A DNA stretch of 64,000 bases. Origin: an uncultured Burkholderiales bacterium. Its GTDB lineage: Bacteria > Pseudomonadota > Gammaproteobacteria > Burkholderiales > Burkholderiaceae_C. This document shows, piece after piece, positions 17,412 to 34,392 of this stretch. The DNA is taken from contig CAIKYO010000183.1 of NCBI GenBank assembly GCA_903831655.1, positions 19-64,018 on the forward strand. Direction: 5' to 3'. Under the pieces are notes generated by a model. The model saw nothing but the letters and a program-made list of their open reading frames with translations, did not search any database and was not told the origin of the DNA. The position numbers and the translations under genes were made by a program. Position 1 is the stretch's first letter, and every line of letters begins with the position of its first letter.

Positions 17412-17489
17412 GGATGGGGGGCTGAGTGACTTTTGGATTTGAAAAGGATGAAAAATCAGTGATGCGATTTTAGGCAAAGTGCCCTTGAC

Positions 17490-18338: not shown

Positions 18339-18753
18339 AGGAAAAGCTCCAAATTAAAAGTAAATTGACTGAAGTCGCTCAGTTGTTAAGCAGCTCGTGT
18401 CTCAAGGGTTGAGTTCCACGCCTTTGGTAGGAGATCAGGATGGTCATTTGAAATGCACACCATCGTCTCTTCAAACTCAAAGAGGAGTTGGGAATGGGCC
18501 TTGTTGATACAGTTTTTGCTGGACACAAACAGCGACTAATGTGGCACAAGCTTGGGTCCAATGGTTAAAGGGTTTTTCCTGATCGGGAGAACCTCAAGTG
18601 CGCAACTCTAGGAGGTGCTTTGCTCATAGAATCTTCACTTTCAAACGAATGTCTTGATCGACACCGTTTTCTCTAGAACTCTTCTCAAACCCCGATTGAC
18701 TACAAAACACTGGGGAGTTGAGAAACTGATTTTTTAATTATCAAAGGTCTGAC

Positions 18754-19896
18754 ATGCGATTAGGTTACTTCACAATGCCCTTGCATCCTTTAGAGCGGGT
18801 GCTGGCAGAGACGCTTCAAGAGGACAGAGAGACAATCATTTACGCCGATCAGTTGGGTTTTTATGATGCCTTTGTTGGAGAGCATTTAACCGATAAAGCA
18901 GAAAATGTGACCAATAGTTTGATCTTTTTGGCCTCCATCATTGGTCAAACCAAAAACATCAAGTTGGGTTCCGGCACTTCAAACTTGTCCCACTCTCACC
19001 CCACCTTGATCGCCTCTCAAGCGGCCATGTTTGATCACCTGACCAAAGGTCGTTTCATCTTTGGAATTAGTCCAGGTGCGTTGTCCTCAGACGCCGAAGC
19101 GTTAGGCATCTTGGACCAAGATCGAAACAAAATGTTTGCTGAGGCGATTGATGTCATCTTGGCCATTTGGGACAGGGAGCCTCCCTACAACATCGATTTT
19201 CCCGATAACCGATACAAGGTGAGTACGCAAAAAACGCAGGTCTTGGACATTGGCAAAGGCATCATGATGAAGCCCTATCAGTCCCCAAGGCCGGAGATTG
19301 TGGGCACCGTTGTGGCGCCACACTCCAAGGGTGTGATTGCCATGGGAAAAAGGGATTTCCATCCCATGTCTGCCAATTTCTTGCTCTCTCACTGGCTTCC
19401 CAGCCATTGGCAAAACTACGCCCAAGGCAAAGCGGAGGTCTCACAAGAGGCCAATCCGAGTGATTGGCGTGTGGCAAGAACCATCTTTGTAGCCGATGAC
19501 TCCAAGACCGCAAAAGCGTATGGTGCAGAGGATGCGCAAAGTCCCTATCGTTTCTATTACCAACAAATGCTCACCAAGATGAAGTTGGGTAATCGCCACG
19601 TGATCTTTAAAAAGCACGAGGGTGAAAGTGATGAACATGTCACAGTTGAGCGCCTTTTGGATGAGTTGGTCATCAAAGGAACGGTGAACGAAGTGGTCGA
19701 TCAACTCTTGGCTTTGCGAGAGCAAGTTGGTGAGATTGGTGAAATCGTCTACGCTGGCATGGACCTTGTCGACCCCAAGTTGGGTCGACGCTCCATGGAG
19801 CTCATGGCCAATGAGGTCATGCCCCGTGTGAATGCTGCCATTGGTTTGGGCTCAACCATCAACGCCAATCCAAAGATGAGTGGTGTGGCCGCCTAA
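18754..19896 (+). CDS. LLM class flavin-dependent oxidoreductase (luciferase-like monooxygenase)
   Basis: ADQLGFYDAFVGEH, IKLGSG, HPTLIA..AAMFDHL..GRFIFG pattern. Confidence 0.88.
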   Translation: MRLGYFTMPLHPLERVLAETLQEDRETIIYADQLGFYDAFVGEHLTDKAENVTNSLIFLASIIGQTKNIKLGSGTSNLSHSHPTLIASQAAMFDHLTKGRFIFGISPGALSSDAEALGILDQDRNKMFAEAIDVILAIWDREPPYNIDFPDNRYKVSTQKTQVLDIGKGIMMKPYQSPRPEIVGTVVAPHSKGVIAMGKRDFHPMSANFLLSHWLPSHWQNYAQGKAEVSQEANPSDWRVARTIFVADDSKTAKAYGAEDAQSPYRFYYQQMLTKMKLGNRHVIFKKHEGESDEHVTVERLLDELVIKGTVNEVVDQLLALREQVGEIGEIVYAGMDLVDPKLGRRSMELMANEVMPRVNAAIGLGSTINANPKMSGVAA

Positions 19897-19915
19897 ACAA
19901 CCGTTCAACCACCCT

Positions 19916-19951
19916 AAAGCCCAAAGACGCTTGCTCTTTGGGCTTTTTTTT
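19916..19951 (+). terminator. Rho-independent terminator after the LLM gene, insulating the virB8 operon
   Basis: 12-bp stem aaagcccaaaga/tctttgggcttt followed by a T run. Confidence 0.85.
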
Positions 19952-20056
19952 GATCGTCAATCGATCGATGTGGGAAGCAGAAAATTCACCTTAAAGAGGG
20001 CTGTTTCCCTTATTTTTTGCACACCATAGCAAGACTCTTTTCTCGCATGATGGGGC

Positions 20057-20758
20057 ATGTTTGAAAAGAAATTAGATGCTTCCCGTCAATCAGATGAATT
20101 GGGCCATGTACCCACTGTCATGGATCCCCATGAACGTCGCACCTACAGCGACGTGGTCATGGAGTCTCGTGTGCAAGCGGCCCGGTGGTTTTGCATTGCG
20201 GTGCTTGAGTCGTTGGTGATTTTGGCCTTGGGGGTGAGCATTGATTTGATGACCCCGTTGGTGAAAACGGTTCCCTACATGGTCAAGATCGACTCAGACT
20301 CTGGACAGGTGCTGGCCAAACCCGTTGCCGCTGAGCCCTTTTTGGTGGAGCCTCGGTTTGTGGCTGCAGAGGCCAGAAGTTTTGTACGCAACTTGATGTC
20401 GATCGATCCCTTTTTGAGTCGACGTGATCTGGAACGTGCCTCAACCAGGGTTGCAGGAAAAGCCAGTGCTGAGTTCAAAGAGTTCTTGCTCACGGAGCGA
20501 CCCTTTGAGCGCATGGCCAAAACACCTGGTCTGCTCAGAACCACAGAGATCAACAGCGCCGATGTTTCGCAAAAGAACATTGTCTTTGTATTTGCGCAAA
20601 CGAGAGAGCGAATCTCCATTGGGGCTCCGATCGTGACGAAGTGGAGATTCACGATTCACTACGTTTTGGACACCACCCTTGATCAAAAGGGATTTGAGGA
20701 AAATCCCCTTGGTTTTGTGATCACCCATTTTGAGCGCTTACAGGACAACGTGCAATGA
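20057..20758 (+). CDS. virB8: Type IV secretion inner membrane protein VirB8/TrbF
   Basis: Single TM, then VPYMVKIDSDSG; C-terminal ENPLGFVITHF signature. Confidence 0.88.
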   Translation: MFEKKLDASRQSDELGHVPTVMDPHERRTYSDVVMESRVQAARWFCIAVLESLVILALGVSIDLMTPLVKTVPYMVKIDSDSGQVLAKPVAAEPFLVEPRFVAAEARSFVRNLMSIDPFLSRRDLERASTRVAGKASAEFKEFLLTERPFERMAKTPGLLRTTEINSADVSQKNIVFVFAQTRERISIGAPIVTKWRFTIHYVLDTTLDQKGFEENPLGFVITHFERLQDNVQ

Positions 20759-21663
20759 AGCTTGAACACAGGGGCACTTTGTTGTGCATGATTTTTTGGG
20801 TGCAGTGTGCATGGGCTCAGCCCACCGTTGTGAGTGCGGACACTCGTTTGGTCACCTTTGAGTTCGATCCTGACAAAAGCTACCTGGTTCTCACCCGGCC
20901 CAAATCGGTCACCCACATCCAACTCGCACCCAACGAGATGATCAATACCGCTGTGGCGGGAGACACCTCTAACTTTAGTGTGGTCGTCAGCGCCAATCGA
21001 ACGAGCGTTTTGGTGCGTCCCAAGTACGAGGGGCTCACCACGAGTTTGACCCTGATCACCAATGCAAGAAGTTACCCCATGGTGCTGAGATCAACGCCCG
21101 AGGCCACGGGCAAGTGGTATCAAAGGGTGAATTGGCATTTCGAAGAAATGGAATTGAATGCATTGAGCCCTCTTGGCAACCCACACGATCTGAGCGCTTC
21201 CCTTCAAACCTCCTCTTTGAGCGCAGAGGGGATATTGAGGGCACGTCCATTGGGGCCCGAAGAGATGCAAGGGGAAGTTCATTCAAACGATGTCCTTGCC
21301 TCACTCCATCCAAACTCGACTGCTGAGGCGCAAACCTCATTGAGTCTTGATTTGGATCGACTCACACAGTTGAGGAGTCAGTACTCAGTAGAGGGCAGTG
21401 CAGATTTCAGGCCATTACAAGTCTTTGATGATGGACAAAGGATGTATTTGCACATGCCTGATGAGATGCAAAATTTCCCAGCTATTTTTGCGCTTGAAGA
21501 GGACCGCGCGCAGTTGATCAATTTCAGTCTTGCCAAGCGCTTTGTGGTGATTCAAGGTCTTCATTCAGAATTGTTACTGAAAAATGGCTCTTTGGAGGTC
21601 AAAGTCAAGCGCACACCCAGTAGCAATGGCTTTTGGGGAGGGCTCTTGCATGGAAACCGATGA
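20755..21663 (+). CDS. virB9: Type IV secretion outer membrane core protein VirB9/TrbG
   Basis: Signal peptide, DTRLVTFEFDP, T.I.LAP.E, GDT..F, TSLTLITNARSY; C-terminal PLQVFDDGQRMYL. Confidence 0.9.
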   Translation: MKLEHRGTLLCMIFWVQCAWAQPTVVSADTRLVTFEFDPDKSYLVLTRPKSVTHIQLAPNEMINTAVAGDTSNFSVVVSANRTSVLVRPKYEGLTTSLTLITNARSYPMVLRSTPEATGKWYQRVNWHFEEMELNALSPLGNPHDLSASLQTSSLSAEGILRARPLGPEEMQGEVHSNDVLASLHPNSTAEAQTSLSLDLDRLTQLRSQYSVEGSADFRPLQVFDDGQRMYLHMPDEMQNFPAIFALEEDRAQLINFSLAKRFVVIQGLHSELLLKNGSLEVKVKRTPSSNGFWGGLLHGNR

Positions 21664-23284
21664 CCTGATGAAACCTGTGGTTGAAAAAGCGCGGGGTGTT
21701 CCACCTAAAAAAGTGGTCCTTCCTGTCTTGGTCTTGATCTTTGTTGTGTTGATGATTTTGTCATTCATATCTTCTGAGAATGATGAGCCCATTCAAAGGG
21801 GGGATGATCTTGCCAAGAAAAATGAAATCAACCTGAGTGAGTCCGATCGCTTGCAGATGAAGGGTGCCCAAAAATTGGTGGGTGAGTCTTACGCATTAAG
21901 TGGACTGACGCCTGAGATTTTGTTGTCCTCACAGATCAATTCAACCCAGCCCCACGATGCCAACACGTCTCCTTCGGCCTTTGGTGTTTCCACGCCCATC
22001 AGCAAAGATTCAAAAAGCAATGGGTACTTGGCGCAAAGTCAATGGCCCACACCCATTCACAGTGGCTCGAATATTTCAAATCCAAAGGGACTACTCTCTC
22101 CTAATTCTGCAAGCTTGCCAGTAGGGCCCCTGATGGGACAGGCTTCGTTGCCTTTGCCCGTTGGTCAAGTTCAGTGGGAGGGGGGTGTTGGAGTTGATTC
22201 TAAAAATGATCTATTGGCCTTAAAAGCAGCCAAGGAGATTGAGGTGCTCAATTCCAAAATGGTCGTTGCTGACTTTGATGACCGCGTGTCATCCTCAATT
22301 GCGAACCCACTTGGGGTCACCTCACAAGCGAAAACTTCAAATGGGTTGAGCCAAGAGCAAGCCCAAACCTTGGCCAACTTAAGGCAAAAAGCCATGAATT
22401 GGTCTGCCTCCAACCCACAGGCATCATTGGGCATGGGCTCAGTCGGTGCAGGTGCTGGCGGGGGCAATGCCTCCAAAATGGGCTTGGAAAGCGACTTGCC
22501 TGGCGCTCATGAGGGTGCATTGGGTTCAGACAAGAGTGGCTTTCAAAAAGCCTCAGAGCTCCTCGATGCATGGAGCAATCCATTTCAAGACCCGGCTCTA
22601 GGCGGAAGCACTTCGAGGCCAAGTCCTTCACTTGCGAACAAAGACACTTTGTTTTTGAATGAGTTTGCAAACTCCACTGCATCCAAGGCGGGTTTGCGTC
22701 CTAGGCGTTTGGAGAGTGCAGGTTCGATCTTTGAGGGGAGTGTCATTCCTGCGGTCTTGGCAAGGGACATCGTCTCCGATTTGCCGGGCACCCTGACGGC
22801 CTTGGTTTCACAAGATGTCTACGATTCATTGACCTCGAGCTCGGTGCTCATTTGCAAGGGGGCGAAATTGGTCGGTCGCTACAACCACGACGTTCGAGTG
22901 GGTCAGTCTCGTTTGATGTTTGCTTTTACGAGACTCATCTTGAACAGTGGTGAGTCGTTTGATTTGACGGGCTTTGAGGGCTCTGATGCGTTGGGTCGAG
23001 CGGGGTATGAGGGTGATGTGAACAACCATTTCTTGAAAATCTATGGATCCTCATTGGCCATTGGAGTGCTTGCAGATCAGGTGACAAAACAATCGCAAGT
23101 TCCTCAAGGTACCTTTGCTCAACCCAGTGCAACGGGGCAAATCATGGTTCAGACCACAAGAGAGATTTTGAGTCGAACAAGGGACGTCTCTCCCACCATC
23201 ACCATTGAGCACGGCACTCCAATCAATGTGGAGGTTCGGCGAGATTTAATTTTCCCAAGTACCCAAAGAGCGAGGTGCACATGA
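21650..23284 (+). CDS. virB10: Type IV secretion core protein VirB10/TrbI
   Basis: N-terminal TM, long Ser/Pro/Gly linker, GSVIPAVL...SDLPG.LTA.VSQDVYDS, GRAG..GDVNNHF, PTITIEHGTPINVEVRRDL. Start moved to 21650 (GGAGG upstream). Confidence 0.92.
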   Translation: METDDLMKPVVEKARGVPPKKVVLPVLVLIFVVLMILSFISSENDEPIQRGDDLAKKNEINLSESDRLQMKGAQKLVGESYALSGLTPEILLSSQINSTQPHDANTSPSAFGVSTPISKDSKSNGYLAQSQWPTPIHSGSNISNPKGLLSPNSASLPVGPLMGQASLPLPVGQVQWEGGVGVDSKNDLLALKAAKEIEVLNSKMVVADFDDRVSSSIANPLGVTSQAKTSNGLSQEQAQTLANLRQKAMNWSASNPQASLGMGSVGAGAGGGNASKMGLESDLPGAHEGALGSDKSGFQKASELLDAWSNPFQDPALGGSTSRPSPSLANKDTLFLNEFANSTASKAGLRPRRLESAGSIFEGSVIPAVLARDIVSDLPGTLTALVSQDVYDSLTSSSVLICKGAKLVGRYNHDVRVGQSRLMFAFTRLILNSGESFDLTGFEGSDALGRAGYEGDVNNHFLKIYGSSLAIGVLADQVTKQSQVPQGTFAQPSATGQIMVQTTREILSRTRDVSPTITIEHGTPINVEVRRDLIFPSTQRARCT

Positions 23285-24645
23285 TCGCTTGGGCTGTGAA
23301 ACCCGTCTCACTTGGATGTTCAAGGACTTGTCGGCTCAGACTTTTTTGTGCACTGAGTTTGAGCTTGATGGTTCACCCCACTTGGGCGAAGGGTCTTGAG
23401 AGATTTCATTTTGATTACGCCATTTATGGCATTGGTCAACCCCAAAGCCTTCAAATCTTTGATGATGGGGTGCGCACCTTTTTAATGTGGAATGAATCCG
23501 TTGATGCTCCACGAATTGACGAGGGGAATTCAACGGGTGCATTCAAGCTCAACCGCGAGGGGGCCTATTGGGTCATGCAGGGTGTTCATTCTCATTTGGT
23601 ATTGCGTTTTGGTCAGGGTTACTTTCACGTATTGGCCACGGGTAGACAGCCCTTGAGTACCTCCACCTTGTCGGAGGTGCAATTGGATCTGAATGCCCAC
23701 ACCTCTCACAGGTGGGGTGCTTTCGCTGGCCATCCAGCCCAGCCCAGTGAGCCTTTTGATTTTCGCGCTGCAAAGCTTATTGAAGGGGACGTGACCTCCA
23801 ACTCTTATGCACAACCCATTCACGGTGATGAGTTGTCATGGAAGAAATTGGAAGACAACTCAAGCGATATTGGCCCTCAGACTTCCATGCAGAACTTGGA
23901 CAACAAGCTTCATGGGAGCAGTGAAAACATGGCATTGCTTGCCTTTCCAAAAGGCTCCAAGGTGCTCGGAGTGCAGGCCAAGGCGAGGTTGAGGGAATTG
24001 TTGAAGGACAAACGAGTCGGATTTGATCTGACGGTCGTGGGCTATGAGGACGATTCGTATCTTGAGGATCTGGGGCAAGAGCGGGCCGACGTGATTAAGC
24101 AATACCTCTTGGCTCAAGGTGTGAAACAAGAGCGGGTGAGGCTTCAAATTGAGCCCTTCACCGAAATGAGGGCAACCAAGGGTACAAAACCCCCGGGCGC
24201 CAAGATCATTTGGCACCGTTTGGAGGATTCAAGCAGCAAGGTTGAAAAAACCGCAAGCAAGAACATTGCACCATTTTCCGGGGGTGATCAACCGGTTGAC
24301 AAAGTTCAGCGCAAATTGGCTTTTGATATGGCTCAAAGTTCTTCATCCCCCAGAGTTGACATGGCTTTAAGTGTCCGACCTTCACTCTCTGTGATCAAAC
24401 AAGGCGAGTTGATTCACGAGGGTTTGGCACGTTTGGCCAAGTCCCACAATTGGACATTGATGTGGCGACTCAATTGGGATTGGAAGGCCGTGGCTGACAT
24501 TGATCTCTCCAAAGGAGGAGATGTGGTGCAAGAGGTCAGCCAAGTCATTGAGGCTCTAAGACTAGAGGGTCATGCTCTTCAGTTGAAGGTCTATGAGGAC
24601 AACCAAGTGATGGAGGTGGTGACGACAGAGGTGTTCAATGATTGA
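23281..24645 (+). CDS. PilL-like/TcpQ-domain protein with N-terminal VirB9-C-like and central OmpA-like domains
   Basis: FDYAIYG..PQSLQIFDDGVRTFL; AF.KGS..L...LTVVGYED....LGQERA..IKQYL...GV; C-terminal GELI...L.RLA...NWTLMW...DW...Y.DNQV.EV. ATGA overlap with virB10. Confidence 0.72.
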   Translation: MIAWAVKPVSLGCSRTCRLRLFCALSLSLMVHPTWAKGLERFHFDYAIYGIGQPQSLQIFDDGVRTFLMWNESVDAPRIDEGNSTGAFKLNREGAYWVMQGVHSHLVLRFGQGYFHVLATGRQPLSTSTLSEVQLDLNAHTSHRWGAFAGHPAQPSEPFDFRAAKLIEGDVTSNSYAQPIHGDELSWKKLEDNSSDIGPQTSMQNLDNKLHGSSENMALLAFPKGSKVLGVQAKARLRELLKDKRVGFDLTVVGYEDDSYLEDLGQERADVIKQYLLAQGVKQERVRLQIEPFTEMRATKGTKPPGAKIIWHRLEDSSSKVEKTASKNIAPFSGGDQPVDKVQRKLAFDMAQSSSSPRVDMALSVRPSLSVIKQGELIHEGLARLAKSHNWTLMWRLNWDWKAVADIDLSKGGDVVQEVSQVIEALRLEGHALQLKVYEDNQVMEVVTTEVFND

Positions 24646-26401
24646 TTCAAATCGCCATCAGCGGGGGGCTTGGGACAGGTTCCACCTTGTGTGTGTTGTG
24701 CAGACAATGTGTTTGATGTTTGCTTTGTGTGCGTGTTCATTTGAGGCCAATCGCCTGGGCATTGAAAAAGGGATTTCCCAAACACAGGGGTTCATGGACA
24801 CAGAACCTTCAAGGCCATCTCAACCCTCACCACCTGGGGGTGTGATGCACATCAAGGGTCCTAGGGTTTCGGGACAAGTGGTGAGACTTGACGAACAGGA
24901 GCTGCCTGATGTGTTTTCTCAAAAGGTTCGATTTTTGAGCAAAGGGGCTTCCTCCATGGCTCAGATCACAGCGGATATCTCCAAGCTCATCGGAGTTCCG
25001 ATCAAGGCGAGCGAATTGCTCAATCAAGGGTTGGGCCACGATGATGCCATGGGTTCTCGCCTGGCCAGTCCTCAATCATCGATGTCATGGGGCCCGAGTG
25101 TTGGGGTGGAAATTGATTTTGAGGGCAGTGCTCAAAGTTTGATGGATCTCTTGGCTGGGCAAAACAATGTGTCTTGGCGCTTCAACCCTCAAAGTGCGGC
25201 GGTGGAGTTTTACCGCTTTGAGACCAAAGCATTTTCGGTCTTTGTACCGGGGGGGCAAAAAAACATCAACGCAAGCATTTCACTCTCCGGTGTGAGTGAT
25301 GGAGGAGGAGCGGGAAATTCAACTGGAGCTGCAAGCGCAGCGGCTGGGACGGGCGCGGGCAACGTATCGGTCAACCAAGCGATGAGTGTCAACCCTTGGG
25401 TATCGATCATGCAAGGGGTGAGATCGATTTTGAACGACACCAACCAAAGTTTGAGTTCATCACTGGGATTGCAAGGACAAATGGGCATGGGCGCAAGCAG
25501 TGGAGGAGGGCTGCCTGCAAGCCTTGGCGCTAACGCCATTGGGGGGACCACTTTGAGTGCCAGTGGCGCACAAGCCGTAGCCAATCCTGAATTGGGACTG
25601 ATCACCGTCACCGCAAGACCCCAGGCGTTGGAGCGTGTTCAGCAGTATGTGCGTGCCATCAATGAGCGCTTTGCAAAAAACGTCCTGATTGATGTCAAGA
25701 TTTACAGTTTCTCGTTGGATGAACAAAAGTCTTTGGGATTTGGTTTGAACATGCTCTACACCAAACTGAACCAAATGAATGCAAACATTGTGAGTCCTCA
25801 GCCCTTGCAGGCGGGAGTGGACACACCAGGTATTTTGACTTTGGCTGCACCGACAGGCTCTGGCGCTTGGAGTGGTTCGAACTTTGTGGCTCAAGCGCTC
25901 AGTCAGTTGGGTCGCGTCGCTTTGCTCAAGCAAGCCCAAGTGTTGGCCATCAATGGACAACCCTCTCCGGTGCAAGTCGCCAACGAAATCAGTTTCATCG
26001 CATCCAGTGCGACCACATTGGCGCCCAACGTGGGCTCAATTACCACGCAGACCACGGGTACGAAGGTGGTTGGATTCACGGCCAATTTTTTACCCTTGAT
26101 TTTGGGAGATGGACGCATTTTGTTGTCCTATCAAATCCAAATTTCTTCATTGGCAAGCGCACTGACACCCAACGCTCAAGGGATTCAAACCCCCAATGTG
26201 GCTACCCAGTCTTTGCAGCAACAAGCGTTCTTGGAGGATGGTCAATCGATTGTGTTGTTTGGATACGATGAGGAGCGAAACGCTCAAGCAAAGGCCTTGA
26301 GCGTAGCGGGTCTCTCCAACTCAAGCAGCATGAACCGAGACATGGTGGTCATTGTTTTGCAAGTCAACACAGGAGCTAGGCGTGTCACACCTCCGATTTG
26401 A
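24638..26401 (+). CDS. pilN: Type IVb pilus secretin, R64 PilN family (lipoprotein)
   Basis: Lipobox ALCAC; ET.AFSV, Gly/Ser-rich N2 region, GLITVTARPQALERV..YV..IN, NGQPSP.QV, GFTANFLP.I...GRILL, Q..L..GQS.VL.G. Confidence 0.88.
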   Translation: MIDSNRHQRGAWDRFHLVCVVQTMCLMFALCACSFEANRLGIEKGISQTQGFMDTEPSRPSQPSPPGGVMHIKGPRVSGQVVRLDEQELPDVFSQKVRFLSKGASSMAQITADISKLIGVPIKASELLNQGLGHDDAMGSRLASPQSSMSWGPSVGVEIDFEGSAQSLMDLLAGQNNVSWRFNPQSAAVEFYRFETKAFSVFVPGGQKNINASISLSGVSDGGGAGNSTGAASAAAGTGAGNVSVNQAMSVNPWVSIMQGVRSILNDTNQSLSSSLGLQGQMGMGASSGGGLPASLGANAIGGTTLSASGAQAVANPELGLITVTARPQALERVQQYVRAINERFAKNVLIDVKIYSFSLDEQKSLGFGLNMLYTKLNQMNANIVSPQPLQAGVDTPGILTLAAPTGSGAWSGSNFVAQALSQLGRVALLKQAQVLAINGQPSPVQVANEISFIASSATTLAPNVGSITTQTTGTKVVGFTANFLPLILGDGRILLSYQIQISSLASALTPNAQGIQTPNVATQSLQQQAFLEDGQSIVLFGYDEERNAQAKALSVAGLSNSSSMNRDMVVIVLQVNTGARRVTPPI

Positions 26402-26948
26402 TCCCAAAGTGGTGTGTGGGTGCTGGGCTTTGCTCTTGGCGCCTGCGCTTTGGGCACAAGAAACGAACCCATCAGTGGGTGTGGTCAACGATTTGGATGA
26501 TCAAAAGGCCGTGATGCAAGCTCAAATTGAAATCATGAGAAAGGAGCTGGATTTGAACAGCACACTCAAGTCATTGGCAATGTCTGTTTATCAGCCCTTA
26601 CCCAGTGTGCTGAGTCTATCCATCAGAGGTTCTCAGGCACAGGTGAGGTTGCTATTCGCCTCTGGCGTGAGTGCGAGCTACAAAACTGGAGATCTTGTGC
26701 CAGGAGGTTTCAAAATCTCCGAAATCAAAGAGCGAGAGGTATTTGTTGAGATAAGGCGAAATTCAAAAGCCGTTCGGGTGGCTTTGGAATTTGCAATCAG
26801 CCCAGCCTCACCCTCCCTGTCCCCGTCCTTTGTCTCCGCTGGAGTTGGAGCGATCATCCCACCTGAGCTCATGCCTAAACTACCGCATGTCCCCATGCCC
26901 GCGGTCAGCGCTCCTAGAGCACTGCCTTCTTTAGGGGCAAAACCATGA
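26382..26948 (+). CDS. pilP: Type IVb pilus biogenesis protein PilP
   Basis: Signal peptide, coiled coil, LPSVLSL...G....V.L....G......GD.VPGG..I.EI. GTG start at 26382 follows AGGAG. Confidence 0.72.
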   Translation: MSHLRFDPKVVCGCWALLLAPALWAQETNPSVGVVNDLDDQKAVMQAQIEIMRKELDLNSTLKSLAMSVYQPLPSVLSLSIRGSQAQVRLLFASGVSASYKTGDLVPGGFKISEIKEREVFVEIRRNSKAVRVALEFAISPASPSLSPSFVSAGVGAIIPPELMPKLPHVPMPAVSAPRALPSLGAKP

Positions 26949-28447
26949 TTGTCAAAGTTGCAGACTTGCACTTTGCCTTTGGTATGAAATGGATCATTTC
27001 TCATGACAAAAAAGAAACTCGATTGATCAAGGCTCAGTTCAATCCAAAGGGCTCTTTGTTTGTGTGTCAAGAAAAAATTAAGGCCGAGTTTGCTCCCAAC
27101 GGTCAGGCTTGGCTTGGGGTCTACACTTTGAGTTCAAAATCTCGCGCACTCCGGGAGCCAAAACCAATCTATTGCGCCGCACTTTGCCTGGCTACTTTTG
27201 TGCGAGACGCCATACTTGTTCAGCCCCTCATGGAGGGTTGCGTTTGGTTTTGTGTGATCAAAGATGGATTGCCCGTGGTGGGATTTGATCTGTTGCTAAG
27301 CCCTGATGAGATTGAGTCCCATGTCGACTATTGTCAAAGGGTGTTCATGACAACTGCCGAAGGGCTTCAACCGGACACGCCCTTGATCTCCAGGTCCTTT
27401 GAGGTGATTGAAGCACTGGAGCTGCTTAGGGGCATAGGAACTGAAAAATCTAAAGATCGTGCTTTAGCTAAAAGTATCAAGGCCGCAAGGCTCAGACCAT
27501 TGGAGCAAATGGGGTGGAGAAAGTTCAGGCCCATTGTGCTGACATTGAGTGCGGGTGTCGTTTTGAGCGTACTTTGTGGCGTTGCTGCGGGTGAAGGCTT
27601 CTTTGCGATCTTCAATGGCACTGTGGATTTTGGCGGGTTGTCCAGCTCAACTCCGGTGCGAAGCGCAGTGGACAAGGTGCACACTTGGGTGAGTACTGCA
27701 TTTTTTCCTGAACACGCAAGGCAAGAGAGCATTCGCCTACAAAGCTTGGCGCTACAAAGGCAAGAGTCGAATATGGCGGGAACACGAGAGAGAGCGCAGG
27801 CTCAATTGAATGCGAGACAACGCCAATACGAGCTCAATGAAGGTCGATTCTTGGATCAACAAAATCTGTTGCGATCAAAAGTTCAAGCAATCGAGCTTTG
27901 GCAGGAATTCAACCGCGTGCGACAAAGTGTGCCTATCTCATTGAAGGGGCGTGAGATGCGCCACATCAAATGTGTGCTTACACAATGTGATTTGAATGGG
28001 TCCACAGGAATCGGCGAAATGGACAGGGCCTTGCGCCAGGTGAGTTTGAATGTGCACGGGTCGCCAATGGAACTTGGAAGCCAGGATTCGGCTGAGGGCC
28101 TCTTGGAGTCCTTGAAAATAAATTTTGACCCTCTGCCCGTGAATTGGAGTACAGCCTCTCCTAATCGGTATTTAATGCAGACGCTTGAGAGCGCAGTGCC
28201 CTTGGTTGCTGAGACCCGAGCAAGTAGAGGGGGTGAGCCGATCAGAGAGCACAAATGGTTGCTTGCCAAAGCAGGCGAATGGTCACTGAACTTGAGTGGC
28301 GAGACGATGCTTGTGCAAGGTGATGAGTTTGTCAAACGCATGGCCCATTGGCCCTTGGAGCTCTCTGAGGTGAACTACCGAAAAAATGAGTCTTTGACTT
28401 TCAAAGGCAGGTGGTTCTATTTTCCAAAAGTGATGGGTTCGCCATGA
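26945..28447 (+). CDS. pilO: Type IVb pilus assembly protein PilO (PilO2-like)
   Basis: FAFGMKW N-terminus, VWFCVIKDGLPVVGFD, central TM, periplasmic coiled coil; position between pilP and the ATPase. Confidence 0.7.
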   Translation: MIVKVADLHFAFGMKWIISHDKKETRLIKAQFNPKGSLFVCQEKIKAEFAPNGQAWLGVYTLSSKSRALREPKPIYCAALCLATFVRDAILVQPLMEGCVWFCVIKDGLPVVGFDLLLSPDEIESHVDYCQRVFMTTAEGLQPDTPLISRSFEVIEALELLRGIGTEKSKDRALAKSIKAARLRPLEQMGWRKFRPIVLTLSAGVVLSVLCGVAAGEGFFAIFNGTVDFGGLSSSTPVRSAVDKVHTWVSTAFFPEHARQESIRLQSLALQRQESNMAGTRERAQAQLNARQRQYELNEGRFLDQQNLLRSKVQAIELWQEFNRVRQSVPISLKGREMRHIKCVLTQCDLNGSTGIGEMDRALRQVSLNVHGSPMELGSQDSAEGLLESLKINFDPLPVNWSTASPNRYLMQTLESAVPLVAETRASRGGEPIREHKWLLAKAGEWSLNLSGETMLVQGDEFVKRMAHWPLELSEVNYRKNESLTFKGRWFYFPKVMGSP

Positions 28448-30264
28448 GTCTAATAGGTCCCACAGATGAGTTCGTGATCACTGACATCACGCAACTCCCG
28501 GCGGGTGAGTATTTGAGTTTTAAGCAAGCTCAATTACCTGCTGCGTTCAGAAAGCATTTTGCATTGCTCCTCTCTCACATCCATTCGCAATTGGAATTAA
28601 GCCCTCAAGAGGATGTCAGCAAACACCAGAATTACAATTTATTGCTGTTGGTCAATGAGGCACATTTTGCAAGTCACGAGTACTTTGATTTGATACATCG
28701 TTTGGACCCTTCGCTTGAGCGGGAGATACAGGGTGGGGGCTCACTGAAGTCAAACTTGAACCGAGATTTGCCGGGTATGCGTTTGGTTCAAGTCATGAAG
28801 GTGACCCATGAGATCATCAAAAGCATACACGCAGCCAATGTCTCCTTACCCCATTGGGTTGAGACACATGTGGAGACCTCCTCATGGGCGTTGATTGACA
28901 GGGCCATCGATCAGCGCGCGTCTGACTTGCACATCGAGACGCGAGGCTCATATGCACAGGTCTACTTTCGAATTGATGGTGAGCGTCGCCCACAGCCCAG
29001 CATTTCATCCAAGAGTGCCATGGATATGTGCAATGTGCTGTACGGAGTCCATGCCGATGCGGACAACAAAGGGGTCACATGGGATGAGAAAACGGTGAAG
29101 GATGCAGTGATTGAGCATCGATCTGCTTTGGGTAAGCACGTTCAGTTAAGGCTCTCAAGCGCTCCGATTCATCCGAGTGGAAATTTTCATGTCGTCATTC
29201 GACTCTTGGTAATGGATGTCCACACCCTCAAGCCCCTGGCTGAAATGGGTTACTCCAAAGAGCAATTGGAGCGCATTGAGGACATGTTGATCGGCTCCAT
29301 CGGTGTGGTCTTTGTGGTGGGACCCACCAACAGCGGCAAGTCCACTTCCTTGCAATCTCTGATTGCTCGCATGTTTGAACAAAAGGGACGTGACATCAAA
29401 GTGATCACAGTAGAGAGACCCGTTGAGTATTTGATCGCATCTGCATGCCAAATGGGGGTTCCTGAGGGTAGGCGCGATTTGATGAATCAACAAACGGGTT
29501 CCCATTACAGCGCTTTTGTTGCCGCAACTTTGAGGCAAGACCCCGATGTGGTGATGCTAGGGGAGGTCAACGATGCGGACAGTGCCAACAACATCATGCA
29601 ATTGGTCTTGTCGGGTCGAAAGACTTTGGCTACTTTGCACGTGTATGAGGCCTTTGGGGTCTTTGCTCGTCTGTGCGAGCTAGGTGTCCCGAAATCGGTG
29701 CTTCTCATGAAGAGGTTCATCAGTGGCATTGTTTTTCAAAGGCTGGTGCCTTTGTTGTGCGCTGGGTGTGCGTTATCTCTTCATGATGAGGGGGCGGTTG
29801 AGCTCATGAGTGCTCAATTACTTGGGCGAGTACTTGCGCTGAGTGGTGAGGACTCAAGCCGGGTTCGACTTCGGGGTGGAGGTTGTCAGGCTTGTTCGGG
29901 CACAGGGTTGGCTGGGCGTACCCTGTGTGCAGAGATTTTGGTGCCAGATGCGTGTTTTTTGTCCTTGATGAATGCAGGACTGGAGGACCAGGCCAGGGCA
30001 CATGGGTTAAAGGGTTGTGGTGCTCTCGAAACCCAGACCGGGGGTTCAGCCATGTCGCATGCCATACAAAAGATGCGACTCGGACTCTTGGATCCCCGAG
30101 ACATTGAGAGGTGGCTGGGGCGCTTGGAGTTAGAGTTCATTGAATCAGAGCAAGCATCCAGGCCAACTGCACAAGCTCTAAGTCCTTTGAAGGCGAAAAG
30201 GACTGTTCCACGAAAAGAAAAGCCACTTGTGGCCCAAGCTCTTGAAAAGTTGGAGCCCGATTGA
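28444..30264 (+). CDS. pilQ: Pilus extension ATPase (GspE/PilB/PilQ family)
   Basis: ASDLHIE, GPTNSGKST Walker A, TVERPVEY, LRQDPDVVMLGEV, LATLH, CxxC...CxxC zinc motif; start moved to the ATGA overlap. Confidence 0.93.
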   Translation: MSLIGPTDEFVITDITQLPAGEYLSFKQAQLPAAFRKHFALLLSHIHSQLELSPQEDVSKHQNYNLLLLVNEAHFASHEYFDLIHRLDPSLEREIQGGGSLKSNLNRDLPGMRLVQVMKVTHEIIKSIHAANVSLPHWVETHVETSSWALIDRAIDQRASDLHIETRGSYAQVYFRIDGERRPQPSISSKSAMDMCNVLYGVHADADNKGVTWDEKTVKDAVIEHRSALGKHVQLRLSSAPIHPSGNFHVVIRLLVMDVHTLKPLAEMGYSKEQLERIEDMLIGSIGVVFVVGPTNSGKSTSLQSLIARMFEQKGRDIKVITVERPVEYLIASACQMGVPEGRRDLMNQQTGSHYSAFVAATLRQDPDVVMLGEVNDADSANNIMQLVLSGRKTLATLHVYEAFGVFARLCELGVPKSVLLMKRFISGIVFQRLVPLLCAGCALSLHDEGAVELMSAQLLGRVLALSGEDSSRVRLRGGGCQACSGTGLAGRTLCAEILVPDACFLSLMNAGLEDQARAHGLKGCGALETQTGGSAMSHAIQKMRLGLLDPRDIERWLGRLELEFIESEQASRPTAQALSPLKAKRTVPRKEKPLVAQALEKLEPD

Positions 30265-31436
30265 TAAAGCCTCGAGCAAGTGCATTGAGCCTGAGTTTGT
30301 GGGACCGTTTTTGGATCACGCCAGCGCACCGAGAGCAATGGTATTTATCGCTGGCAAAGTTGGCCCGTGATGGGTTACCCTTGTTTGACTCGATACAAGG
30401 CATGCAGCGTGAAATGAGTTTGACCCGTCACCCGTTGGCGCCACTCTTGAGTTGTGTGCTCCTTGGGCTGAGGGGGGAGGCGAGGGAGGATCTATCTGGG
30501 TGGGGTCCTTTCCCACTTGATTTGATGAGCCCATCCAAAGCCAGTGATCCCAAGGGCAGGGGTGCGGATTTTCAACGTGGGCTGAGTGCTCGTGCGACCC
30601 TTGCGAGCCAACTGCAGGGGCTCGTGCCAGACAATGAGGCGATGCTGATTCAAGCTGGGGACGTGAGCGGCAAGCTTGCCTTGGGACTGGAGAATGCGGC
30701 CAAGCTCTTAGGTGCAAAGCAAGCGCTATATTTGACTTTGCAAGGCGCATTGATCAAACCACTCACGTATTTTGTCAGCTTGTGTGCTTTGTTGCTTTAC
30801 TTCTCATGGGTAATTTTTCCTCAGTTTGAGGCCGTGCTCCCCAAAGCCAATTGGTCAAGTGGCATGCTTGAGTTGGCTTGGGTGGCCGATCATGTGGTCA
30901 CGTTGATCTTGGTTTTTGTCGGAAACTTGGGTCTCCTCATGGCCTGGTTTTACTGGGCTTTGCCGGGACTCATTCACCCTTGGCGTGTGGTGTTGGATCG
31001 CCATTGTTTCCCCTTCAATGTTTACGCAACCCTGAGTGGATCTTATTTTCTAACGGCTTTGAGTGGATTCATTGATGCTGGGTTGCCGTTCTCCAATGCC
31101 GTTCAATCCATTCGTGCTTGTGCAAATCCCTATCTAACCCATCAGTGTGATCTCTTGTTGATGTCCCTCAAAAGAGGTCAAACACCCGCGCGAGCACTCA
31201 CCCAGATCTCCATCATCGCTCGCCCCTTTCATTGGTTGATATTGGTATATGCAATGTCCTTGGATTCATCTAAAGCGTATGTGGAGATGGCCCATCAAAT
31301 GCGCACCCAGGTTGAAAAATTGATGAAACTGGTATTTGGAGATGTGTTGGGTGGGTTGATGCTTGCTGGTGTTGGAGCTGCAGTCTATTGGATCTACGCC
31401 CAAATGATGACTGGCATGACCACAGTGTCTTTGTGA
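30261..31436 (+). CDS. pilR: Pilus inner membrane platform protein (GspF/PilC/PilR family)
   Basis: L...ARDGLPL.DS, E.MLI.AG..SG.L..GL, L.GFI.AG.PF..A; TM helices. Confidence 0.87.
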   Translation: MIKPRASALSLSLWDRFWITPAHREQWYLSLAKLARDGLPLFDSIQGMQREMSLTRHPLAPLLSCVLLGLRGEAREDLSGWGPFPLDLMSPSKASDPKGRGADFQRGLSARATLASQLQGLVPDNEAMLIQAGDVSGKLALGLENAAKLLGAKQALYLTLQGALIKPLTYFVSLCALLLYFSWVIFPQFEAVLPKANWSSGMLELAWVADHVVTLILVFVGNLGLLMAWFYWALPGLIHPWRVVLDRHCFPFNVYATLSGSYFLTALSGFIDAGLPFSNAVQSIRACANPYLTHQCDLLLMSLKRGQTPARALTQISIIARPFHWLILVYAMSLDSSKAYVEMAHQMRTQVEKLMKLVFGDVLGGLMLAGVGAAVYWIYAQMMTGMTTVSL

Positions 31437-31574
31437 TCTCTTGCCCGCTTGATCGATTCAAGGTGAGGGGTGTCTTCAATGGAGCAAAAAAAAGATCACT
31501 TAGGCTTGTTTTTTGAGAGCTTGAGGATGTGTATCGCAACCTACATTGAATCCTTCAATTTGAAGGATTAAAAA

Positions 31575-32180
31575 ATGAACACAGTACAAGTCTCAATGCA
31601 ATCCGAGAAATATACAAATGCAAGAGGATTCTCATTGATCGAGTTGATCGTCGTGTTGGCCATCATTGCGGCCAGTGTTGCGCTCATTTTGTCAAGGCAA
31701 AGCAGAGCCACAGAGAGCAGCAAAGCAAGCGACATGGTGCAGTCAATCACTTACTTGGCATCCAAGGTACAAAACTTTTATGCCAGCTCGGGCTCCTACG
31801 CAGGCTTGAATCCAAAGGTTGTGGGGCAAATGTCTTTGGTCAATCAACCCTTGAAGTGGGATGGGTCTTCCAGTATTTTGGATGCCTGGAACAATCCTTT
31901 GGGGGTGAGTGGAAATCAAACGGGGGCCTCACCAACCTTTGCCATCACCATTGGTGGAAGTGTCAATCCATTGAACAATGAGAGTTGTACCGCTATGGCG
32001 ACTGCTTTGGCCAGTGCAGCTGATGTTGTGGTGGTGGGGAGCACCAGCATCAATGTGACTGCTGGATTGGTTCCAGTCAGTGGCAATGTTTATAAAAGCA
32101 GTGCGGGTAGTTTGGATTTGACTCAATTGGCAACGGGATGCTCCTCGGGCAATCCGGTCATTGCGCTTCAATTGCATTGA
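31575..32180 (+). CDS. pilS: Major type IVb prepilin, PilS-like
   Basis: Class III signal ARG|FSLIELIVVLAII; 183-aa mature chain with YAGL, D.WNN and two C-terminal-half Cys; strong RBS (GAAGGA) after a 138-nt gap. Confidence 0.88.
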   Translation: MNTVQVSMQSEKYTNARGFSLIELIVVLAIIAASVALILSRQSRATESSKASDMVQSITYLASKVQNFYASSGSYAGLNPKVVGQMSLVNQPLKWDGSSSILDAWNNPLGVSGNQTGASPTFAITIGGSVNPLNNESCTAMATALASAADVVVVGSTSINVTAGLVPVSGNVYKSSAGSLDLTQLATGCSSGNPVIALQLH

Positions 32181-32185
32181 GCCCA

Positions 32186-33130
32186 ATGGAGAAAGGCATT
32201 CAATTCATTGCGTTTGTATGGGCCTGGATGGTTGTCAATGCCATGGCAACCTCCATTGTGGTGACACCCGGGAGCACAGCAAGTTACTTGTATTTCCCAC
32301 CAGCGAGTTCGAGCGCGAGCTCTGGCTCGAGCTCCAGCTCCTTTGGTGGCAACAACTCCACTGTAACTTTGGCCGGTGTTGGAGGCGTGAGTGTCACCAA
32401 GTCTGGGGCTTACACGTCTTACTCCATTGCGCAGAGTTCAACGGGGAGTGTTTGTGGTGTCGGTTGCACTTTGGCTCAATTCAATTCAGGCGCGGGTTTT
32501 GTGACCTTGACCACTTCTAGGCCAAGCACTTTCACAGATTCGAGTGGTACGGCACTGAACAATTGCACAGCTGTTCTCAGTTGCACGACCTGGATCAATA
32601 CCAACTCAAACGTGGCGTTGCGCGTGTACCCCAATTGCTTTGAAGGAGATTACCGATTGAATTACGCAAGCACTTGCACGACCGCACTGATACCGGTTGG
32701 GATCAATCAGTTCTATGCCACCAATCTCGTGGCGATGGGGACCTATGGTGGGGTGTATGCGGGAAATGTGTTGGTCTATCAGGTCACCCAAGCCTTGGCT
32801 GCTTGGGAGTCGCTCAACGACTTGTATGCACAAACCTACGCCGTGGTGTCTACGGGGAGTTCAGGCATCCAAAACAAAGCGAACATCTTGAACGTCTACA
32901 CCCATGGCTCCATCGAAGACACTTGTTCTGGTTTGGGCACGGGTTCGTATTTGCCCAGTGTGAACGAACTGGGTCAGTTTGTTGGTACCTTGCCGTTGAT
33001 GTTTTATTGGACATCTAACGATTCCAATCAAATTTATTCCATAGCCGAAGCTTCAAGCTCTGCTATTTCTACATTTCAAAAAACTACTCCTCTAGCTATT
33101 GTTTGTACACGCTATTACCCTCTTAACTGA
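32186..33130 (+). CDS. Secreted Ser/Thr/Gly-rich, 8-Cys protein; adhesin candidate with a C-type-lectin-like/DUF1566-like C-terminus
   Basis: Sec signal ending AMA|T; C-terminal DTCSGLGTGSYLPSVNEL...YWTS...IVCTR. Start moved to 32186, 5 nt after pilS. Confidence 0.6.
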   Translation: MEKGIQFIAFVWAWMVVNAMATSIVVTPGSTASYLYFPPASSSASSGSSSSSFGGNNSTVTLAGVGGVSVTKSGAYTSYSIAQSSTGSVCGVGCTLAQFNSGAGFVTLTTSRPSTFTDSSGTALNNCTAVLSCTTWINTNSNVALRVYPNCFEGDYRLNYASTCTTALIPVGINQFYATNLVAMGTYGGVYAGNVLVYQVTQALAAWESLNDLYAQTYAVVSTGSSGIQNKANILNVYTHGSIEDTCSGLGTGSYLPSVNELGQFVGTLPLMFYWTSNDSNQIYSIAEASSSAISTFQKTTPLAIVCTRYYPLN

Positions 33131-33142
33131 TCAATTATCAAC

Positions 33143-33601
33143 ATGCAACTCTGGATATTGGCTTTTGGATTGTTGATCGGTTGGGTTGGGATGCAGCGCG
33201 ATTTGAACTGGGTGATGTCAAGGCAAGCGCAAAAGGTGAGTTTGGCTGCAAGTGAGGTTGATGACTACCGTTTGTTCCTTTTTGCAGCCAGCCAGTACTT
33301 GGCCAATTTCAATGGTGGGGCCGGGGAGTTAACTTGGGCTGACCTCTCGAACTCAGATGCCATGCCCGCGGCTTTGAGAGCACACGTGTATTCGTCTTTA
33401 TGGCGAGTGGTCGTCTTGCCAGATGGGTCTTGGGTGGTTTGCTCTCCAATGGGTGAGCGAGCACTTGGTATGCAGTCTCAGTTCATGAGTGCTCACGGCC
33501 TGACTTGGTTGCCCATCGACCCATCCCTTAAAAATCAAGCCACTGGAGCTCAATTGCGTTACATGGATCACTCAAGCGAAAGCCAAGGATTGTGCAGATG
33601 A
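33143..33601 (+). CDS. pilM: Type IVb pilus biogenesis protein PilM
   Basis: N-terminal hydrophobic anchor, A.QYL..F.GG.GEL.W.DL; size and position typical of pilM next to pilV. Confidence 0.62.
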   Translation: MQLWILAFGLLIGWVGMQRDLNWVMSRQAQKVSLAASEVDDYRLFLFAASQYLANFNGGAGELTWADLSNSDAMPAALRAHVYSSLWRVVVLPDGSWVVCSPMGERALGMQSQFMSAHGLTWLPIDPSLKNQATGAQLRYMDHSSESQGLCR

Positions 33602-34311
33602 TGCGCTCCTCAGCGTATGTACCCGAGCTTCAATTGCGTCGAATTGCTCGCAACCATGGATTTGCAATGATGGAGTTGATGATTGGCTTATCCATGTTGG
33701 CGCTCCTTGTCTTAGGGGGTGTTGAAATGGGTGCGCGTGTGCAGCGTCTGAACGCTGCTCACGAGGACGCCGAAGCAATGGCCTCATTCTCTCAATTGGT
33801 AGGGCAGTATTGGGTTGCCAATCGAGCGGCCATAGAGCTTGTGATGTCTGGGCAGTCTCAAGTGGGCAGTGTCTATTGTGCAACCAATGTCTCCCTTGAT
33901 GGACTCAGCCTCACCCCCAGCTTTGATACCCTTAAACACACCTGTGTGATTGACTCAACGCTTTTGCAAGCGAAAGGCCTTTGGCCTCAGAGCATGCCCA
34001 CACAAAGGGCCAATAATCGGTGGGTGGCGGCATTTAGGCAAATCACAAATTTGAATGAGGTCACTGGAGCGGACGAGGTTTTTATGTTCATGTCCCCCTT
34101 GCAAAACGGTCAATTGATGACCCAAGGCGAAGTGAAGATCAATCTCCCTTTGCAAGCCTATGTGGAGCAGTTTCAAGCCAGCATGTCCGAGCTCGGTGGC
34201 ATGGGTGGCTTTGTGCCGCCCTTGCAAACCGTTGGGAACTGTTTGTACACCAGTGCGGTCCAACAAGCTTGTGGGCGAGAGTGGCGTGTTGCGATCTCGG
34301 ATTTTTTGTGA
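33592..34311 (+). CDS. Minor prepilin, PilV/Shufflon_N-like (short, no variable C-terminal domain)
   Basis: Class III signal NHG|FAMMELMIGL; A.QYW..N, L..KGLWP, GGMGGFV. Confidence 0.65.
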   Translation: MQMMRSSAYVPELQLRRIARNHGFAMMELMIGLSMLALLVLGGVEMGARVQRLNAAHEDAEAMASFSQLVGQYWVANRAAIELVMSGQSQVGSVYCATNVSLDGLSLTPSFDTLKHTCVIDSTLLQAKGLWPQSMPTQRANNRWVAAFRQITNLNEVTGADEVFMFMSPLQNGQLMTQGEVKINLPLQAYVEQFQASMSELGGMGGFVPPLQTVGNCLYTSAVQQACGREWRVAISDFL

Positions 34312-34343: not shown

Positions 34344-34377
34344 AACCCCACTCAACAAACCAATGTTGAATGGGGTT
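34344..34377. terminator. Hairpin between the convergent pilV-like and Ala-rich genes
   Basis: 14-bp arms aaccccactcaaca/tgttgaatggggtt with one mismatch (G-U on the minus strand). Confidence 0.6.
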
Positions 34378-34392
34378 CAGGCTGGGGACGTG

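Follow-up and report, generated by a model that had tools for sequence, protein, structure and literature searches.

The window analysed here, a stretch of 64,000 nucleotides on contig C183 (CAIKYO010000183.1) of the metagenome-assembled genome (MAG) of an uncultured Burkholderiales bacterium (GCA_903831655.1, referred to as G000), carries at positions 20057-34311 an operon in which the genes for VirB8, VirB9 and VirB10 of a type IV secretion system (T4SS) are followed by the genes of an R64-like type IVb pilus (T4bP). A preliminary description of this DNA saw in the operon a bare T4SS core without ATPases of its own. Our analysis leads to another reading, namely that the operon is probably the distal half of a domesticated, chromosomal, two-locus and non-self-transmissible T4SS-T4bP apparatus of a Limnohabitans-like lineage, whose proximal half is located elsewhere on the chromosome.

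Neither VirB4 nor VirD4 nor any paralog of VirB8-10 is present in the G000 assembly (3.54 Mb in 463 contigs, 99.99% complete by markers). One contig of this assembly, C369, ends within a TrbL/VirB6-like open reading frame (ORF), which leaves a VirB6 tail of 122 residues that is 46% identical to VirB6 of the related locus L054 and 39% identical to that of Polaromonas sp. JS666. Orthologs of this tail are found in two congener MAGs, G062 (73% identity) and G142 (69%), each of which is 99% complete. In both of them this ortholog closes a compact operon composed of a 101-residue ORF, an FlhC-like regulator, VirB11, VirB2, VirB3, VirB4, a 252-residue protein and VirB6. Metabolic genes surround the operon, and on its downstream side they are in synteny with C369. 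The same two genomes also bear virB8-B9-B10-adapter-pil at the site of the window's operon, with the same TctC, hydrolase and luciferase-like flank.

The continuation of C369 is present on a contig of a JGI metagenome (L221, Ga0007809_10004632), whose sequence matches the terminal 855 bp of C369 (98.9% DNA identity) and runs on for 4.5 kb beyond. This extension comprises virB6 (331 residues), a DUF4141-like gene (255 residues), virB4 (855 residues; PF03135, 58 bits) and a virB3-like gene, all intact, as well as a partial VirB2 ORF, the 5' part of which is not included and which is 75% identical to VirB2 of G062. As judged from these sequences, the organism, or a near-identical population, appears to possess the cognate ATPase-bearing half. 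The notion of a bare core is thereby overturned, with virB4 and virB6 known from the C369 tail and L221, and virB11 from the congeners at a syntenic site. Evidently the partner half failed to assemble or to bin in G000. The partner locus has a GC content of 28-34%, compared to about 50%, a host-like value, for the virB8-pil locus of the window, and its dropping out of the MAG for this reason accounts for the apparent lack of ATPases. The contrast in GC content stands although both halves appear to descend from one element; the low values were seen at 10000-12713 of C369, on L221 and at 12000-19000 of L122/L124. A genome-wide absence of VirB4 in five MAGs, considered as real at one stage, was downgraded, because the C369 tail and L221 show that the G000 assembly itself misses a virB4 that its population has, so that the absences in the other MAGs are unreliable as well. 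Adjoining the end of virB6, at 10429-12120 of C369 (plus strand), is the gene of a 564-residue low-complexity protein rich in Q, N, K, S and D, which is 95% conserved on L221 and does not occur at this position in G062 and G142.

A search for virB4, virB6, virB11, virD4 and a relaxase elsewhere, as proposed in the preliminary description, thus recovers a cognate set and yet no normal conjugative element: the two loci do not sum to one, because neither a relaxase nor a coupling protein was found. Profile searches of contig C183 gave no match to VirB4, VirD4, TrbL or TraI_2. The coupling protein profile PF02534 had no match in G000, and a Ramlibacter TraD query had none in seven clade genomes including G062 and G142, in a search with no internal positive control; the same query finds the type IV coupling proteins (T4CPs) of Rhizobacter and Caenimonas by tblastn. 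PF07514, the profile of the MobH relaxase (other MOB classes were not searched), had no match in G000 and G044 and stayed below threshold in G062 and G142, at 16-17 bits; the controls gave 1e-49 in Ramlibacter (G045) and 1e-51 in Rhizobacter (G051). Directly next to virB11 in G062 and G142 is the FlhC-like gene, at the place where plasmids have mobH-traD-x-DUF4400, and metabolic genes lie upstream. From this arrangement we conclude that relaxase, traD and DUF4400 were removed from that position and not merely missed. The double AAA+ ATPase gene and eexN, which in plasmids are found between virB6 and virB8, are absent beside either half.

The operon in the window consists of 13 intact ORFs, all on the plus strand, as had been described before. 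According to Pfam and NCBIfam profile searches they encode VirB8, VirB9, VirB10 and an adapter, followed by the proteins of the R64-like pilus; the features are given below with E-values in brackets.

19916-19946, plus strand: strong intrinsic terminator of the upstream luciferase-like gene and 5' limit of the operon (12-bp stem, 7-nt loop, T8 tail)
20057-20758, plus strand: virB8, 233 residues (PF04335, 2.4e-28)
20755-21663, plus strand: virB9, 302 residues (PF03524 CagX, 4e-47); its ATGA start overlaps the virB8 stop
21584-23284, plus strand: virB10, up to 566 residues (PF03743 TrbI, 2e-47, residues 382-557)
23281-24645, plus strand: junction adapter, 454-456 residues (Pfam CagX 1.9e-5, OmpA 2.2e-5, TcpQ 1e-9)
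24638-26401, plus strand: type IVb pilus secretin of the pilN family, 587 residues (TIGR02520, 7e-55; PF00263, 6e-14)
26352-26948, plus strand: pilP-like small periplasmic protein (TIGR03021, 7.6e-6, below cutoff)
26945-28447, plus strand: protein at the pilO position, 500 residues (assigned by position; no Pfam or NCBIfam match)
28411-30264, plus strand: pilQ-type assembly ATPase of the T2SSE family (PF00437, 7e-58)
30261-31436, plus strand: pilR-type inner-membrane platform protein of the T2SSF family (PF00482, 1.2e-13, two stretches)
31575-32180, plus strand: pilS-type major prepilin (N_methyl PF07963, 1.3e-6, and PilS PF08805, 3.2e-6, each above cutoff)
32186-33130, plus strand: g11, secreted Ser/Thr/Cys-rich protein (no family match; conserved in the clade)
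33143-33601, plus strand: g12, small membrane protein at the pilM position (assigned by position; no family match)
33592-34311, plus strand: g13, short minor prepilin-like protein at the pilV position (weak prepilin N-terminus; NF007800, 0.005; TIGR02532, 0.013)

Start/stop overlaps of 4 nt are possible at 20755, 23281 (ATGA), 26945, 28444, 30261 (TTGA) and 33598, and the sole sizeable intergenic gap, of 139 nt, precedes pilS. The tight overlap and translational coupling noted in the preliminary description are therefore borne out, including the boundary at 23281-23284, where the ATGA start of the adapter gene overlaps the virB10 stop. Its placement of the operon between two terminators holds for the upstream side only, since downstream there is just a hairpin at about 34345-34380, the T-rich tail of which is on the minus strand and suits the convergent gene better. 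The likely start of virB10 is at 21650 or 21668 and that of the pilQ-type ATPase gene at 28444 (ATGA overlap), while the pilP-like gene has candidate starts at 26352, 26382 and 26409. TGA is the stop codon at all 12 gene ends checked (g01-g12, 20758-33601), many of them within ATGA or TTGA overlaps.

The Pfam matches of VirB8, VirB9 and VirB10 exceed their cutoffs by far, and those of the ATPase (PF00437) and the platform protein (PF00482) also lie above theirs. VirB8 is 91% identical to its counterpart in the related locus L013 and 64-70% to those of congeners, and VirB10 combines a long, low-complexity N-terminal half with the TrbI domain at its C-terminus. The PilN secretin scores 186 bits against TIGR02520, which is under the equivalog cutoff of 288 bits; it has 2,719 plasmid PilN relatives and shares 27-30% identity with PilN of IncI plasmids. 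Same-position homologs of the pilP-like protein are present in L013, L016, L017 and L036, and weak ones of the protein at the pilO position in L013, L016 and L036. The secreted protein g11, a candidate pilus-associated adhesin, is matched in G015 and G062 by orthologs of 53-60% identity in the equivalent position; in plasmid relatives its slot is held by PilT-like ATPase genes. For g12 there was no blastp match to PilM of JS666 and no detectable homology to annotated PilM, and its ortholog in G015 is 36% identical; the corresponding value for g13 is 42-49%. None of the 13 ORFs matches the Pfam or NCBIfam families of the PilU prepilin peptidase, the PilT transglycosylase or the shufflon PilV/Rci proteins, although no search aimed at integrases or shufflon recombinases in the window was made, and two A24 peptidases are encoded elsewhere in the genome, on contigs C257 and C211.

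Where does this layout originate? In an alignment-based scan, the order virB8-B9-B10-adapter-(optional second TcpQ)-pilN-pilO/P-ATPase-platform-pilin was found at six loci and then at dozens more, and in more than 30 loci virB10 is directly followed by an adapter with a CagX C-terminal domain (CTD), OmpA and TcpQ and then by pilN. The conserved order, which the preliminary description proposed to look for in other genomes, occurs in Hydrogenophaga, Ramlibacter, Rhodoferax, Polaromonas, Burkholderia, Paraburkholderia, Sideroxydans and Methylophilus as well as in numerous MAGs. Upstream of virB8 the related loci carry virB4, a conserved hypothetical gene, virB6 and a double AAA+ ATPase gene, and farther upstream virB11, virB2, virB3, DUF4400, a TraD-type coupling protein, a TraI_2/MobH relaxase and FlhDC-like regulators. 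Plasmid 2 of Polaromonas sp. JS666 (NC_007950), typed as conjugative with a relaxase of class MOB_H and mating-pair formation of type MPF_T, has the whole array in one orientation, annotated as mobH-traD-DUF4400-virB11-B2-B3-B4-x-B6-AAA-eexN-B8-B9-B10-TcpQ(adapter)-TcpQ-pilN...pilV (shufflon-type). The stretch virB8-B9-B10-adapter-pilN is the standard 3' half of widespread MOB_H/MPF_T transfer modules of Burkholderiales plasmids, and sequence comparison places the ancestry of the present system in a single-array module of this kind with a T4bP, as found in Burkholderiales plasmids and elements resembling integrative and conjugative elements. The earlier statement that no system of such composition was known does not hold, as JS666 plasmid 2 and the IncI2 plasmid pDRC-3 already have the joined T4SS-T4bP layout; a literature search found no description of the junction of VirB8-10, adapter and T4bP, or of a domesticated version of it. 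What sets the present system apart, and is unusual, is that it is chromosomal, split at two conserved sites and stripped of transfer genes.

Of the full relatives, those nearest to both halves are two metagenome modules that are not split, L222 and L223 (VirB6 59%, VirB8 60% and VirB10 63% identity); this fits one ancestral element that was later split and stripped. In a tree of VirB9 and VirB10, the full locus L054 is the sister of the window's clade. Similar splits are seen in other genera. In Rhizobacter isolates, relaxase-T4CP-virB11...virB6 and virB8...pil occupy two chromosomal sites 450 kb apart, and in Caenimonas about 10-15 kb of other DNA is located at the same virB6/virB8 boundary, with the first half upstream. 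The split point is a natural operon boundary. The tree was at first read as three independent reductions, each keeping VirB8-10; this was rejected because Rhizobacter and Caenimonas retain the first half elsewhere, so that their arrangements are splits at the operon boundary and not reductions. The cultured isolate Rhizobacter sp. LjRoot28 (L113/L114 = G051:C1 1.369-1.380 Mb; L075 1.83-1.85 Mb) shows the same split boundary and has kept relaxase, T4CP and DUF4400. Within the transfer array of JS666 plasmid 2, a gene annotated as IscB RNA-guided endonuclease (L033 21988-22926) lies between the second TcpQ gene and pilN.

Between the window and L013, the synonymous divergence (dS) is about 1 in the locus and its flanks alike. 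The ratio of nonsynonymous to synonymous divergence (ω), a rough estimate in all that follows, is 0.05 for VirB8, 0.26 for VirB9, 0.17 for VirB10, 0.13-0.26 for the adapter and pil genes and 0.02-0.07 for the flanks. Over the comparisons it ranges from 0.05 to 0.17 for virB8, from 0.13 to 0.26 for virB9 and from 0.17 to 0.27 for virB10, and is about 0.08-0.11 for the pilQ-type ATPase gene. For the partner half it amounts to 0.07-0.17 between G062 and G142, and for the virB6 tail to about 0.12-0.15. In more distant comparisons and in the partner locus the values are 0.07-0.35, and every ORF is intact at a dS of 1 to >2. Both halves are under purifying selection and decay is excluded; for virB8-10 ω is 0.05-0.27, and the relaxed selection that would have spoken against the preliminary description is not seen. 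Both loci occupy conserved chromosomal sites across several species and, together with the flank-like synonymous divergence, this indicates vertical inheritance. The system is scarce in the genus, with 3/25 and 3/121 genomes sampled. In the comparison of window positions 16425-28447 with L013, nonsynonymous divergence (dN) in the locus (0.05-0.35) is 3-20 times that of the flanks (0.016-0.03) at an equal dS of about 1, and the identity drops sharply right after virB8, from 91% to 52-79%. This faster protein divergence suggests diversifying or relaxed-but-purifying pressure on a surface machine.

A physical link between T4SS core and pilus, as envisaged in the preliminary description, is made plausible by the adapter, a dedicated junction protein predicted to contain VirB9-CTD, OmpA and BfpG/TcpQ domains. 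We built an AlphaFold2 model on 35 homologs and compared it with known structures using Foldseek. The model consists of three domains (pLDDT 80-97) with disordered linkers between them. Domain 1 (about residues 41-140) is a β-sandwich that matches the CTDs of VirB9 proteins (6gyb_B, 8rt6_B, 7o3j_B, 2n01, 3jqo_B) and CagX, and the structures matched include solved outer-membrane core complexes. Domain 2 (about 212-320) matches the peptidoglycan-binding domains of OmpA, Pal and MotB, and domain 3 (about 366-450) matches BfpG of the type IVb secretin complex BfpB-BfpG (9u5s_R). Because of these matches, and because the adapter gene is invariably positioned between virB10 and pilN, it is a reasonable inference from the model that the protein acts as a bridge joining T4SS core, peptidoglycan and PilN secretin. 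Close relatives are few, just 5 among 5.8 billion proteins; a scan of genome contigs with the single protein retrieved nothing, while the alignment-based scan recovered relatives. A protein of 280-340 residues with CagX (VirB9-CTD) and TcpQ domains heads chromosomal T4bP clusters in about 40 Alcaligenaceae loci (among L062-L112), where its gene is followed by those of the secretin and the T2SSE ATPase. For Pigmentiphaga litoralis E30 (L085 9845-16408) we verified that the 10 kb upstream are free of VirB8-10 and other T4SS genes. The same series of reductions may have ended in these clusters, or the VirB9-like domain may be an intrinsic part of the pilus.

How could the two halves work together? 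We propose that VirB8-10 would form the usual envelope-spanning core with VirB4, VirB11, VirB6, VirB3 and VirB2 supplied from the other locus. The VirB9-like domain of the adapter could dock on, or copy, the outer layer of VirB9/VirB10, its OmpA-like domain could bind peptidoglycan, and its BfpG/TcpQ-like domain could hold the PilN secretin, such that pilus and channel would stand side by side. Contact would be supplied by a pilus built from PilN, the PilO/P-like proteins, PilQ, PilR, PilS, the short PilV-like pilin and perhaps g11. In the absence of relaxase and coupling protein such an apparatus should not transfer itself, and it has most likely been retained for a host function that needs pilus-mediated contact, for example adhesion or aggregation, DNA uptake or release, or aid to the movement of other elements. 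A more specific version of this idea, which we put forward tentatively as one possibility, is an adapter-docked T4SS-T4bP supercomplex without relaxase and T4CP that works for the host (in DNA uptake or release, or in adhesion to cells or particles in plankton) and not in conjugation, and of which the half with virB8-10 and the pilus might even work without the VirB4 half in some congeners.

Several points weigh against the two-locus reading. The VirB11 and FlhC-like genes and the 5' part of virB2 were seen in the congeners G062 and G142 and are carried over from there to the population of this genome. The ω values are rough, as for most comparisons dS approaches or exceeds saturation. All genomes of the Limnohabitans clade considered here are MAGs, and AT-rich parts go missing in this very genome; the absence of relaxase and T4CP could thus be an artefact of assembly or binning, or the relaxase could be provided in trans by a different MOB family. 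Moreover, contact with a T4SS core is not a necessity for the VirB9-like domain, which can persist without a core in cis, because the pilus loci of Alcaligenaceae encode a VirB9-like/TcpQ protein and no VirB8-10.

Could the half in the window be sufficient by itself? A machine of VirB8-10 and T4bP powered by PilQ, without VirB4, VirB11 and VirB6, either here or in congeners that seemingly have this half only, is in our judgement very unlikely. It would agree with the lack of VirB4 in the assemblies G000, G041, G044, G023 and G052 and of TrbL in G041, G044 and G023, with purifying selection on virB8-10 also in the comparison with L016, and with the Alcaligenaceae loci, which show that this type of pilus can stand alone. 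For the present organism, however, it is contradicted by a VirB6 tail under selection and by the 98.9%-identical contig with intact virB4, and absences in MAGs are unreliable for a partner locus with the dropout-prone GC content given above. An empty partner locus was tested for at the site of a marker gene of the metallo-β-lactamase (MBL) fold. There, G023 and G052 have 6.6-7.5 kb of upstream sequence without T4SS genes, as this alternative would have it, but the test is weak since their local synteny differs and G041 has a contig break.

It is also unlikely, though less so, that the two loci continue to form mating pairs for a transmissible or mobilising element. Its relaxase and T4CP would then be unassembled, too divergent or provided by another element, and the pilus would steady mating pairs in open water, as that of IncI plasmids does. 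In favour of this, every close relative outside the genus is a conjugative module, Rhizobacter is a split system that keeps its transfer genes, the FlhC-like activator typical of such modules is retained, and AT-rich DNA is under-assembled in these MAGs. On the other hand, the FlhC-like gene abuts virB11 in G062 and G142 at the very position that relaxase, traD and DUF4400 take up in the plasmid array, these 99%-complete genomes have no T4CP and no above-threshold match to TraI_2, and conserved sites with flank-like divergence indicate vertical inheritance. That the operon is a functionless, decaying remnant of an integrated conjugative element is most improbable. Transfer genes, the AAA+ ATPase, eexN and PilT-like ATPases have indeed been lost in comparison to plasmid relatives, and the system is rare in the genus, but all 13 ORFs and the partner-locus ORFs in L221, G062 and G142 are intact at a dS of 1 to >2, ω is 0.05-0.35 throughout, and the translationally coupled junctions have been kept.

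The two-locus apparatus can be compared with known systems. With the type of JS666 plasmid 2 it shares the gene order virB8-B9-B10, CagX/OmpA/TcpQ adapter, (TcpQ), pilN, pilO/P, ATPase, platform, pilin and the pilM and pilV positions. The junction protein there also contains CagX, OmpA and TcpQ, the VirB8, VirB9 and VirB10 proteins are 36-49% identical to those of the window, and the virB11-B2-B3-B4-x-B6 block matches the partner locus. It differs from this type in being chromosomal and split over two loci, in having no detectable MobH, TraD, DUF4400, double AAA+ ATPase, EexN, PilT-like ATPases or long shufflon-type PilV, and in the addition of g11 as a clade-specific secreted protein. IncI2 plasmids (TP114, R721; the one examined was pDRC-3, NZ_MK574667) likewise carry an MPF_T T4SS and an R64-like T4bP in one co-oriented array. 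The pilus of TP114 acts as a stabiliser of mating pairs and has an important part in DNA transfer within the mouse gut (PMC9045228). In contrast to the present system, IncI2 plasmids belong to class MOB_P and have virB11 and virD4 between virB10 and pilN, their PilL-like protein has a TcpQ domain only and no VirB9-like or OmpA-like domain as in the adapter, and the array includes prepilin peptidase, transglycosylase, PilV and shufflon recombinase.

The thin pilus of R64 (IncI1; pilI-pilV) has in common with the window a lipoprotein secretin of the PilN family, the PilQ ATPase, the PilR platform, the PilS pilin and a TcpQ-type accessory protein. Compared to R64, the scores of the window are all under the NCBIfam equivalog cutoffs, the model of conjugative PilL gives no match, and the locus has no PilT, PilU or Rci. 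The partner of the R64 pilus is a Dot/Icm-like type IVB secretion system and not a VirB core. As to the secretin, pairs such as BfpB-BfpG (PDB-code: 9u5s) and TcpC-TcpQ are similar in that the C-terminal domain of the adapter matches BfpG/TcpQ and its gene directly precedes the secretin gene; in the adapter, unlike in these proteins, the domain is fused to OmpA-like and VirB9-CTD-like domains.

VirB4, an ATPase, is the one ubiquitous component of T4SSs. The coupling protein is lacking in the domesticated systems Trw of Bartonella (adhesion) and ComB of Helicobacter (DNA uptake). Like the system described here, these are conjugation-derived, chromosomal VirB-type machines without relaxase and coupling protein, and ComB is split over more than one locus. 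Unlike it, they have no attached T4bP and no VirB9/TcpQ adapter, and ComB has no VirB11. A ComB-type DNA-uptake T4SS is a VirB2-4/6-10 set that has neither T4CP nor relaxase and is needed for natural transformation; the gene content would be compatible with it save for the presence of VirB11, seen here in the congeners.

The capture of conjugation machines by their hosts is occasional, with Trw and ComB as the known examples. If our reading is true, it would add such a capture in abundant free-living freshwater bacteria and the first in which a T4bP was kept beside the channel. The conserved adapter also provides a concrete hypothesis of how a family of Burkholderiales plasmids might mount DNA channel and contact pilus as one envelope assembly. 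For work with MAGs the lesson is that AT-rich partner loci (28-34% GC) vanish from them, so that claims of missing T4SS parts need checks of the kind described above.

The immediate flanks of the operon in the window are metabolic and encode TctC, a hydrolase, a luciferase-like monooxygenase and Fer2/MoCo dehydrogenase subunits. Paralogs of the TctC/Bug family are plentiful in this genome, with about 100 or more tblastn matches for one query, 6 of them on C183; such an abundance is typical of Comamonadaceae-like Burkholderiales.

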